A stretch of DNA of 64,000 nt from Octopus vulgaris. Lineage: Eukaryota. Shown here piece after piece: positions 35,601 through 59,907 of the stretch. The position numbers and the translations under genes were made by a program. A model generated the notes under the pieces. That model had not been told where the DNA came from. It ran no database searches and worked only from the letters and a program-made list of their open reading frames with translations. The stretch spans positions 72,292,001-72,356,000 of the forward strand of contig OX597825.1 of the NCBI GenBank assembly GCA_951406725.2. Reading direction: 5' to 3'. Within the stretch, counting starts at the first letter, position 1. The number at the start of each line of letters is the position of its first letter.

Positions 35601-35771
35601 TTAGTAACAGGAAACTGCCTGGAAATAGCAAGCTGTGATGACGGCACGCTTTCTTTGGATCTCTTTCAATTCGTGTTCAGTGCCACCGTAATCTCGGAAA
35701 GTTTCGTAAGCAACGTCAAGTAAGCGGTGTAGTAAACGATTAGCCAGCTGCCTCTCCCGCGAAATCTCGCT
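35601..35771 (-). CDS. AstC: Allatostatin-C precursor, terminal coding exon containing the mature peptide AVITACYFQAVSCY
   Basis: An acceptor TTTGTTCTGTTCTCGTTGCAG| precedes 56 codons, SEISRERQLANRLLHRLLDVAYETFRDYGGTEHELKEIQRKRAVITACYFQAVSCY-TAA. An RKR convertase site precedes a C-terminal C-x6-C-aromatic peptide, the AstC signature (cf. arthropod CYFNPISCF and CAFNAVSCF). Confidence 0.93.
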   Translation of the reverse strand, partial: SEISRERQLANRLLHRLLDVAYETFRDYGGTEHELKEIQRKRAVITACYFQAVSCY

Positions 35772-35899
35772 CTGCAACGAGAACAGAACAAACGTAAGAA
35801 TAATGATAAAATAAAATAAATATATTTACATGCATTGTAAAACAAATCGCTAAATCTTCTTGTTCATCGTTCCCTATTTGTGTGTGTGTAAGTATGTAG

Positions 35900-35973
<74 letters not shown>

Positions 35974-36103
35974 GTAAAAAATATATATACAAACTGGGAC
36001 AAGAACGTGAAACACCTAGAAGACGACACAAGAAACACAGGACGGGACATTCGAAGCCCTCAATCATCAGTCAAGGACCGGATCATCTTCGCAATTTCGG
36101 CTG

Positions 36104-36164
<61 letters not shown>

Positions 36165-36653
36165 CCACGAAATGCGCGTAGTCTTTTTACTACTATTTAC
36201 TATTTATTGTACTTTATTGATTTTTAGAATAATTTTTTTTTATAGTATATGTTTCTAGATGGTGTGAATAACATCTTTCTTTATTGAATTGTTTAACAGA
36301 GGTTTTTTCTCTAGATTATATATATATATATATAGTTCTAATAAAGCAAAAGACGGATACAGGTCGGTGAGGGAACAACGCTATGGAAGAATGGAAAAGT
36401 GTTTCACGTCTCGAGCCTACGCTTTTCAGCAGTAACGGTAAAGAGGAAAATTCTCTCATTTATTTCTTTGTTTATATATATATATACATATATGTATGTA
36501 TATATACATGAATTCACACACCAGCATACATACAGTCATACGTATACGCAAGAAGGCGAGTAAGCTGAAATATACTTACAAAACTTTAAAAATGTATTCC
36601 ATTAAAATATCAAAAACACATTGAGTAATCCTTCAGGGGAAGGTTATTTTTTT

Positions 36654-36701
<48 letters not shown>

Positions 36702-36755
36702 ACTGTACGTACCCCCACACATACATGCACATTCACACACACATACGTGTGTATG

Positions 36756-36793
<38 letters not shown>

Positions 36794-37224
36794 TACACAC
36801 ACACATTCTATTCTATTTCGTAGGCAGATCCTATGAGATATAATTAAACATTTTATACGAAGCGTGACAGTTTTTGGTGATTGGACAAAATTCATATGTG
36901 TGTTTTTGTTTACTTCTTTTTTCTTTTTCTTCTTAGAAAGTTGTTTAGCAATGGAAATGGAAATCAGAGAAAGTTCTCAGTATCTCAATATCTTAATGCT
37001 TTTAGAGACCTCCCCCCCCATCCTGTGAAATATTTCGCCAAAATACTATTTGTTACACCGCATACAAACGTGAAAAAATTGTGAAATAAACGAAGTTATA
37101 AATATATATATTATATTATATTATATTATATTATATTACATTATATTATATACATATGCATATATTTAGGTATATATGGAATGTATATGTACGTGTGTGT
37201 GTACGTGCGTGCATGCTTGTCTGT

Positions 37225-37290
<66 letters not shown>

Positions 37291-57475: not shown

Positions 57476-57508
<33 letters not shown>

Positions 57509-58012
57509 TGTATGTATGTATGTATGTATGTATGTATGTATGTATGTATGTATGTATGTGTTCATGTATGCTTGTATGTTTGTCGGTCGGTCTATCTATA
57601 TGTACTATGTATGTATATATGCATGTATGTATGTATCTATGTATTTATGTATGCATAATGAGCGTTTATTCATAAAAAGAAGTGCTACAGATACGAGATA
57701 TTGAACTCAATACTGAAAGACATATAGCCTATTGTATTCTACGTTCTGTCAAGCGTTAAGACATTTGCAGCGGAGTCAAGTCAGTGACGAGGTTGCAGTT
57801 GGTGCGACGAAAATTTTGACACCAAATACAAGATGTCCATGTGCAACCAAGAGACTTTGGGTGTTTTATAATGGCAAAAATGTATCTTCTACGCTACTGT
57901 CGGTTTAAGCATTCGATCCTGTTTCAATTCTAACTCAATCTGATCACAGATTGTAATCGGTTGAATTTTCCAACGACAGGACTAACTTGGTGAACTAACC
58001 ATTAAATAAACA

Positions 58013-58043
<31 letters not shown>

Positions 58044-58554
58044 CGCATATTATATGAGTCTTTGTGTGTGTGTGTATGAGCGAGTGAGAGAGAGAAGAGA
58101 GAGAGAGAAGAGAGAGAAAAAGAGAATGTATGCACGAATGCGCATGTGCTTGTATGTTTGTATGCGTCTCTCGTATGTAAATACGGCTGAATTTACAAGT
58201 TGGAAGGAAAATGTACTCAGTTTTAAAGTAAAATATTTTTATTTCTTGTACTTCCTACATAATCTACCGACATTACACTCACTGTATGGAAACTATCCCC
58301 GTTCAACAAGCAAATTAGAACAGCACGCTTACACGCACACGCACACACGTACACACGTACACACAAACACATTCTCTCTCTCTCACACACGAATCACATG
58401 CTAGGCGCACATAGAGAAACATTCTCACACATACATACACACAGACATACATATATAATTATATATATATAATCTTAAACATATAGGGAACTTGAGAGAT
58501 ATATAGACGAATAGACGAGATGTATATAATACACTCAATCATAACATGTAGGCG

Positions 58555-59397
58555 TATGTATGCATGCATGTATGTGTGTACGTATGTATGTATGTATGTA
58601 TTTATGTATGTATGTATGTATGTGTGTATGTATGTATGTATCTATGCATGTATATGTGTAGGTATGTATGTGTGAATGTATGTATGTATGTGTGTACGTA
58701 TGTATGTGTGTATGTATGCATGTATTATGTATGTATGTATGTATGCTTGTATGTATGTATGTATTATGTATGTGTGTATGTATGTATTATGTATGTATGT
58801 ATGTATGTATGTATGTATATATGTGTATATGTATGTATGTATATATGTGTGCACGTATGTATGTGTGTGTGTATGTATGTATGTATGTATGTATGTATGT
58901 ATGTATGTATGTATGTATTACAAATGAAAAGCTGTGACGTAAAAAATTGCTTGAACAAAGTTTCCAAGTCACCCTTAACTTAACAATTTTTTAAAAGCAA
59001 AGTCTTGACAATTTAATTCACGATGACGCTCACCACATCCCCGCTTCCGCCTTCCTCGCACACTCATAGATGCATGTTACATATATAAAGGTATGTGAAT
59101 ATATATATATATATATATATATGTATTACATTGTCAAAAGAATATAAGATAATACTTAATATTCTAGTCGGCATCATATGAAAAGTTGTTATAAACTTTT
59201 TAAAGTGTGTGTGTGTGTGTGTGTGAGTTAGTGTGTGTATGTGTGTACACGTATGCGTGTGTATGTGCATATGTATAGTTTTATGTATATGTGTGTGTAT
59301 GTATATATTTATATATATAAATGTATATTCATGCATGTATGTATACATATATATATGTATGTGCGTGCGTGTGTATGTGACTGGACATATATATATG

Positions 59398-59452
<55 letters not shown>

Positions 59453-59556
59453 GTATGTGTATATACATATATATGTGTGCATATATATACATATATATAT
59501 ATACACGTATATATATATATATATATATATATACCCACATACATATATATATATAT

Positions 59557-59632
<76 letters not shown>

Positions 59633-59730
59633 TCACAAATATATATGTATATGTGTGTATATATGCATGCATGTACGTTTTCATACATACATTTGTGAGT
59701 GCTTGTGGTTGTACGTGAGTGTATACATGT
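58555..59730. repeat. (TATG)n/(TA)n/(TG)n microsatellite field at the 5' end of the AstC intron
   Basis: Directly visible. Many more TA, TG, GATA, GTT, GGT and AAG tracts occur throughout the window. Confidence 0.95.
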
Positions 59731-59805
59731 ACAATACAAGTATTTCTGTAAAGAAAACTTTAAAAAAAAAAAAAGAAATAATAATAAAAAACATCAAAGA
59801 CTTAC

Positions 59806-59907
59806 CAGTTCACTTTTGGGTAAAACTTCGGAGAGGGCCATAGCTTCGGCAAACATATTGGCACACACCACTACGAGAAAGAAACAGGCAAATGTGTGTT
59901 GACGCAT
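59806..59907 (-). CDS. AstC: Allatostatin-C (somatostatin-like) neuropeptide precursor, first coding exon (signal peptide)
   Basis: ATG at 59907 gives 34 codons, [34 protein letters not shown]: a basic n-region, a hydrophobic core and an A-M-A cleavage motif. The exon ends at a consensus donor CTG|GTAAGT in phase 0, matching the phase-0 acceptor at 35771. TATA/Inr motifs lie upstream. Confidence 0.85.

Follow-up and report, generated by a model that had tools for sequence, protein, structure and literature searches.

We analyzed a 64,000-nucleotide stretch of the Octopus vulgaris genome (contig OX597825.1, positions 72,292,001 to 72,356,000), called the window below, in which an earlier note made from the sequence alone had proposed a two-exon allatostatin C (AstC)/somatostatin-like neuropeptide gene on the minus strand. 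The locus contains a short first coding exon with a hydrophobic signal region, a long intron and a terminal coding exon that encodes a pro-region, a basic cleavage site and a peptide with a C-x6-C loop (Table 1). The gene is the published OvAstC and is not new. We consider it probable, at roughly 85%, that it is a functional AstC-family prohormone gene that belongs to a second paralogue group common to bivalves, gastropods and an annelid.

Table 1 Features of the OvAstC gene, in window coordinates
Feature	Position	Strand	Remarks
Coding exon 1	59806..59907	-	102 bp, 34 codons, ATG at 59907; hydrophobic signal region and start of the pro-region; donor GTAAGT follows
Intron	35772..59805	-	24,034 bp, GT-AG, phase 0, rich in simple repeats
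Coding exon 2	35601..35771	-	171 bp including the stop; conserved pro-region, RKR site, mature peptide
Conserved pro-region, residues 40-73	35655..35756	-	identity 26/34 to Pinctada, 22/34 to Patella
Arg-Lys-Arg convertase site, residues 74-76	35646..35654	-	Lys-Arg invariant in 23/23 aligned relatives
Mature 14-mer AVITACYFQAVSCY, residues 77-90	35604..35645	-	C-x6-C loop; stop right after Tyr
Probable 3' untranslated region	34934..35600	-	about 667 nt; X3 and X4 contigs both end at 34934
Possible 5' untranslated region and promoter	59908..60270	-	inferred; TATAAA at 60270 and 60037

Gene structure, precursor and identity

The two coding exons join into a 90-aa frame with no internal stop, and the acceptor of exon 2 is a pyrimidine tract ending in TTGCAG. 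Of the 24 public runs listed, 20 contain the segment 35000-35800, and none was recorded as RNA. Four runs were placed on 34660-35895; two of them (X3 and X4) were guessed to be RNA and the other two (X17 and X16) were unlabelled. The contigs of X3, X4 and X17 span exon 2 and leave the genome sequence at 35772. The loose ends of the X3 and X17 contigs are exactly window positions 59807-59836, which is their sole match at up to 3 mismatches, while the X4 contig that halts at 35772 carries 250 unaligned letters beyond this point. The junction letters were therefore seen in two of the four runs (X3 and X17). X16, included to provide a DNA control, gave no coverage of this exon (76 in 100 of its content was read) and counts neither way. 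The exon 1-exon 2 gene model is real. No longer form of the precursor was found among 20 candidates. A search of the window in six frames with a tight AstC-type motif gave one match, against none in any of 60 local shuffles. The loose motif KR..C-x6-C-stop, taken alone, is in the chance range, with 2 occurrences in the window for a shuffle mean of 0.35 and a maximum of 3; its second match, at 9307-9248, was rejected as low-complexity chance.

The N-terminus of the precursor shows a hydropathy peak of 3.2 at residues 7-15, and the OvAstC preprint (bioRxiv 10.64898/2026.02.18.706622) puts the signal peptide at 22 aa, versus 24 in the earlier note. The features by which AstC is broadly recognized are present: two cysteines six residues apart (the definition of PMC8786951), a single C-terminal peptide behind a basic site, Tyr90 after the second cysteine (the Tyr/Phe feature of PMC5996578) and a phase-0 intron in the pro-region, the last being common to SSRPs and not diagnostic (PMC9048919). 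Most AstC members have an Asn in the loop, which is replaced by Gln85 in the octopus peptide. Because this Asn is common but not universal in AstC (PMC9048919), Gln85 does not exclude membership of the family. Pfam assigned no family to the octopus precursor, a PDB sequence search with it returned two chance-level matches (E 0.28 and 0.39), Rfam gave no match and the Atlas structure matches were uninformative. The top Atlas clusters for the precursor were 'Allatostatin C' (0.94) and 'Prohormone-1-like' (0.93); we take prohormone-1 to be AST-CCC. Two further candidate roles were rejected. For a pro-region peptide with pyroglutamate, Gln42 lacks conservation, being Leu in Argonauta. As for a role in venom, AstC appears just in the abbreviation lists in what was available of the preprint on cephalopod venom (bioRxiv 10.64898/2026.02.02.703354), and expression is broad.

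The 90-aa product is identical at 90/90 positions to CAI9731308.1, a 'hypothetical predicted protein' of Octopus vulgaris (UniRef100_A0AA36BC24, genus Octopus), and at 78/90 to GAB1606153.1 of Argonauta hians. A second database model, CAI9731309.1 (P0006), is 73 aa long; beginning at Met18, it misses most of the hydrophobic signal stretch and is probably a gene-calling artefact. The OvAstC preprint of 2026 reports the same mature peptide and two exons of 102 and 171 bp separated by one intron. Its printed intron length is 24,304 bp versus our 24,034 bp, a mismatch that may reflect swapped digits or a different assembly. It also reports broad expression by reverse transcription PCR (RT-PCR) and, in a cell line expressing a chimeric G protein, activation of two receptors by the synthetic cyclic peptide, with a half-maximal effective concentration of 28 nM at OvAstCR1 and 3.5 uM at OvAstCR2; the open form was less potent, with 160 nM at OvAstCR1. 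Since peptide, exons and pharmacology are all in this preprint, the gene model, the peptide and the receptors were already known, and the original observation adds nothing new to them. Much of the earlier note nevertheless holds. The phase-0 pairing of 59907-59806 with 35771-35601 is confirmed by the identical database protein and by contigs of X3 and X17 that cross the exact junction from 59806 to 35771. The assignment to the AstC family, the non-amidated 14-mer and the octopus origin hold as well. The note had allowed that the peptide might already be reported in octopus, as indeed it is. What does not survive is the gene model as a contribution, which was already in NCBI and UniRef and had been published.

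If general prohormone biology applies, the signal peptide would route the precursor to secretory granules, a convertase would cleave after RKR and the two cysteines would pair as a disulphide. The 14-mer would then be released with a free C-terminal Tyr and no amidation, as no Gly precedes the stop. By analogy with other AstC systems, it would most likely act on gut, ganglia and sensory tissue as an inhibitory (Gi/o-type) neuromodulator and hormone. Antinociception is a proposal of the OvAstC preprint, where the pathway is put forward as an opioid-like antinociceptive system of cephalopods.

AstC types in molluscs

The loop Gln is called cephalopod-specific in the OvAstC preprint, and a single molluscan AstC precursor is stated in PMC8514136 and PMC8786951. 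We searched 1.84 billion representatives with a profile built from four close octopus-type precursors, using a cut-off of E<=0.001, and obtained 21 matches. Loop position 1 is aromatic in all of them and position 3 is Gln in 18 and His in 3; the classical loop was found in none, and classical AstC precursors were not reached by this profile. Ala86, at loop position 4, is invariant in 23/23 relatives. The same Tyr-Phe-Gln-Ala loop and conserved pro-region occur outside cephalopods, in bivalves and gastropods. Gln-type precursors are those of Pinctada imbricata (KAK3105177.1), Patella caerulea (KAK6177369.1), Crassostrea virginica (XP_078310171.1), Plakobranchus (GFN86465.1) and Bradybaena (BFZ23643.1), and His-type precursors those of Potamilus (KAK3581395.1) and the annelid Paralvinella (KAK2167853.1). 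File 2 of the supplement to PMC6425005 contains a Bathymodiolus precursor of the Gln type. The Gln/His-type precursors of bivalves, gastropods and the annelid (P0009, P0010, P0013, P0020, P0022, P0023 and P0028) are unannotated.

The molluscan AstC list in supplement 1 of PMC8514136 has 20 entries, none of them Gln-type, and includes Nautilus with an Asn-type peptide. It holds classical entries for C. virginica (XP_022344895.1) and P. imbricata (CM008067.1). Together with the profile matches, this means that each of these two species carries both types, which contradicts the single-precursor statements. Judged from these sequences, molluscs seem to have two AstC genes, the octopus gene being of the second type, a result of moderate interest. 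In the readable parts of the supplements, a Gln loop was found in none of PMC8557429, PMC9048919, PMC8514136 and PMC8851493 and at least once in PMC6425005; in the latter, part 125 of file 3 lists AstC entries of the classical type only, without any cephalopod. A second molluscan AstC paralogue was not found reported in the open literature searched; subscription papers (including Veenstra 2009, 2010 and 2016), figure images and bioRxiv supplements lay outside this search and may note it. No classical-like loop occurs in the six frames of the window.

Several points weigh against our interpretation. The runs behind the junction contigs are guessed to be RNA or unlabelled, the mature 14-mer is a predicted product, and a Sepia survey did not detect AstC, according to the OvAstC preprint. 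Of 18 new profile matches 10 were looked up, and five of these 10 are named (Potamilus, C. virginica, Plakobranchus, Bradybaena and Paralvinella). As the profile was made from Gln-type sequences, the tally of matches is biased towards this type and gives no estimate of prevalence. Finally, the proposed two-group split is drawn from comparing motifs and from the presence of both types in two species. A tree of 21 core sequences (the 23 minus two duplicates, 51 columns) separates only two Phe-Phe-His rows and some small groups; with 10 of its 18 inner branches open and without an outgroup, it was not used as evidence.

A second paralogue would matter to neuropeptide specialists, as it contradicts two printed claims, that the Gln is cephalopod-specific and that molluscs have one AstC precursor. 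It is a candidate second ligand for the two to five AstC receptors of bivalves, and it gives a candidate explanation for the unequal potency at OvAstCR1 versus OvAstCR2.

As to where this paralogue arose, we find the case evenly balanced for a birth inside Lophotrochozoa, with the likeness to arthropod AST-CC/CCC reflecting convergence or a retained ancestral loop and not orthology. Such an origin is compatible with the second-paralogue reading and competes only with the case for arthropod orthology. It is favoured by the profile search, in which none of the 21 matches at E<=0.001 is an Asn-loop (arthropod-type) precursor, and by the Atlas, which for an oyster Gln-type protein ranks 'Allatostatin C' (0.94) above 'Allatostatin CC' (0.90, a borderline score). 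Veenstra 2016, by its title, reportedly sets the C/CC/CCC triplication in the ancestral arthropod. Against this origin, the octopus loop is identical at 7/9 positions to that of Drosophila AST-CC but at 3/9 to that of classical oyster AstC (6/9 to AST-CCC, and 5/9 to the Nautilus and Aplysia classical peptides and to Drosophila AST-C), and a leucine-rich stretch of the pro-region looks like that of AST-CC by eye. Moreover, the Ala at loop position 4 of the octopus peptide is the arthropod CC/CCC state (PMC8851493). Two transcriptome shotgun assembly entries labelled 'Charonia lampas' (PMC9048919 supplement, part 9) resemble insect AST-CC and AST-C and are similar to Tribolium entries; contamination being possible, they were not used as evidence of molluscan AST-CC.

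A more far-reaching scenario joins these observations, and we regard it as rather doubtful. The AstC duplication would predate the arthropod 'triplication', and orthology to AST-CC/CCC would hold for nemertean AstC2, for the octopus gene and for its relatives in molluscs and annelids. Coleoids would have lost the classical AstC kept in Nautilus, OvAstCR2, which is 100-fold less sensitive, would be the receptor of the lost or undetected paralogue, and the pro-region, whose conservation is unusual, would be a second functional element (a peptide or a sorting helix). The coleoid loss is suggested by absences only: a single BLAST match in the OvAstC preprint, Nautilus as the sole listed cephalopod, and none in what is available of the PMC6425005 list.

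That the octopus gene is instead the orthologue of a single classical molluscan AstC, with a cephalopod-specific change from Asn to Gln, is improbable. This is what the OvAstC preprint states, on one BLAST match in the genome, and the single-gene statements of PMC8514136 and PMC8786951 agree with it. Yet the same Gln loop is found in five named non-cephalopod molluscs and in the Bathymodiolus sequence, Nautilus has a classical Asn-type entry, the profile matches lack the classical loop, and the species with both types already largely refute it. Lastly, a wrong exon pairing, or contigs joined from a processed DNA copy, is most improbable: although none of the runs used is recorded to be RNA and X16, the putative DNA run, could not serve as a control, the splice sites are canonical, the exact junction is in contigs of two studies, the database model is identical, and RT-PCR products were sequenced in the OvAstC preprint.

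Transcript ends and surrounding sequence

An ATTAAA at 34955-34950 lies 16 nt before the shared end of the X3 and X4 contigs at 34934, and this end probably hints at the 3' end of the transcript. Within 35320-35415, next to an A-rich tract with AATAAA at 35413 and ATTAAA at 35373, contig depth in X3 drops to 413 from a level of about 1500. An upstream poly(A) site or internal priming may lie behind this step; contigs do not separate the two. A very high-copy repeat fragment (34705-34776), found in thousands of contigs of all four runs, lies about 160 bp beyond the probable poly(A) site. On the 5' side it is possible that the X3 contig, if colinear, would extend to about 60186.

Pfam analysis of the 118 frames of at least 70 aa that are not of low complexity gave three transposase pieces and one sub-threshold match, and no nested or neighbouring gene; the long frames of the intron matched no Pfam family. 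The transposase pieces belong to a broken DNA-transposon relic at 25983-27271 on the plus strand, about 8 kb downstream of the gene and opposite to it, with a CENP-B N-terminal domain (E 1e-7) and DDE_1 pieces (E 6e-12 and 3e-4) in separate frames. The relic is presumably pogo/Tigger-like. The intron contains a tandem array (44417-45416) of 5.5 copies of a 184-bp unit with 96% match. Frames that read like this unit are also found at 789-1139, 8227-8622 and 61544-61915, and the unit is therefore probably a dispersed repeat amplified in tandem.

Comparison with known peptide systems

The octopus gene shares with somatostatin, urotensin II and the protostome SSRP-like peptides a disulphide-looped C-terminal peptide, a phase-0 intron in the pro-region and related receptors. 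It lacks the Trp-Lys motif of the SSRP-like loop (PMC9048919), and none of the 23 relatives matched the somatostatin or urotensin families of Pfam. AstC and somatostatin are argued to be paralogues by Koch 2022 (PMC9048919) and Zhang 2022 (PMC8851493), and the molluscan somatostatin orthologues are the separate Trp-Lys SSRP-like peptides according to both. The description of AstC in the earlier note as the protostome counterpart of somatostatin is superseded by this argument; the note had also missed the Gln-type loop as the mark of a paralogue.

Classical lophotrochozoan AstC (Aplysia, oysters, scallop, Nautilus and Platynereis) resembles the octopus precursor in having one C-terminal C-x6-C peptide after KR and an aromatic residue after the second Cys. 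Among the 20 listed molluscs, however, the first loop residue is aliphatic or Met in 19, where octopus has Tyr83 (the aliphatic feature is that of PMC9048919), Asn is present in 19, where octopus has Gln85, and loop position 4 is Val, Leu or Ile in all 20, where octopus has Ala86 (a feature from PMC8851493). All 20 also have a basic tail, by our own tally and not by a published definition, whereas the octopus peptide stops after Tyr.

Arthropod peptides show another combination. An aromatic first loop residue is the arthropod and nematode state (PMC9048919), and the fly and beetle AST-CC end without a tail as the octopus peptide does; AST-CC and AST-CCC have Asn instead of Gln and end in Phe instead of Tyr.

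In nemerteans, a supplement heading of PMC8557429 reads 'Allatostatin C2 (Nemerteans only)', and according to the main text Allatostatin C2 peptides were confirmed by mass spectrometry. By eye, these precursors resemble the octopus gene in their aromatic-Phe-x-Ala-Val-Ser loop and in the pro-region that immediately precedes KR. Again by eye, they carry His where octopus has Gln and Phe where it has Tyr, and they have a Gly with a basic tail, an amidation signal of which octopus has none. The Paralvinella precursor (P0028, profile E 6.9e-5) has the Phe-Phe-His-Ala loop of nemertean AstC2, and the nemertean loop and pro-region are closer to this annelid match than to the octopus gene. The paralogue labelled 'nemerteans only' probably extends to molluscs and annelids.

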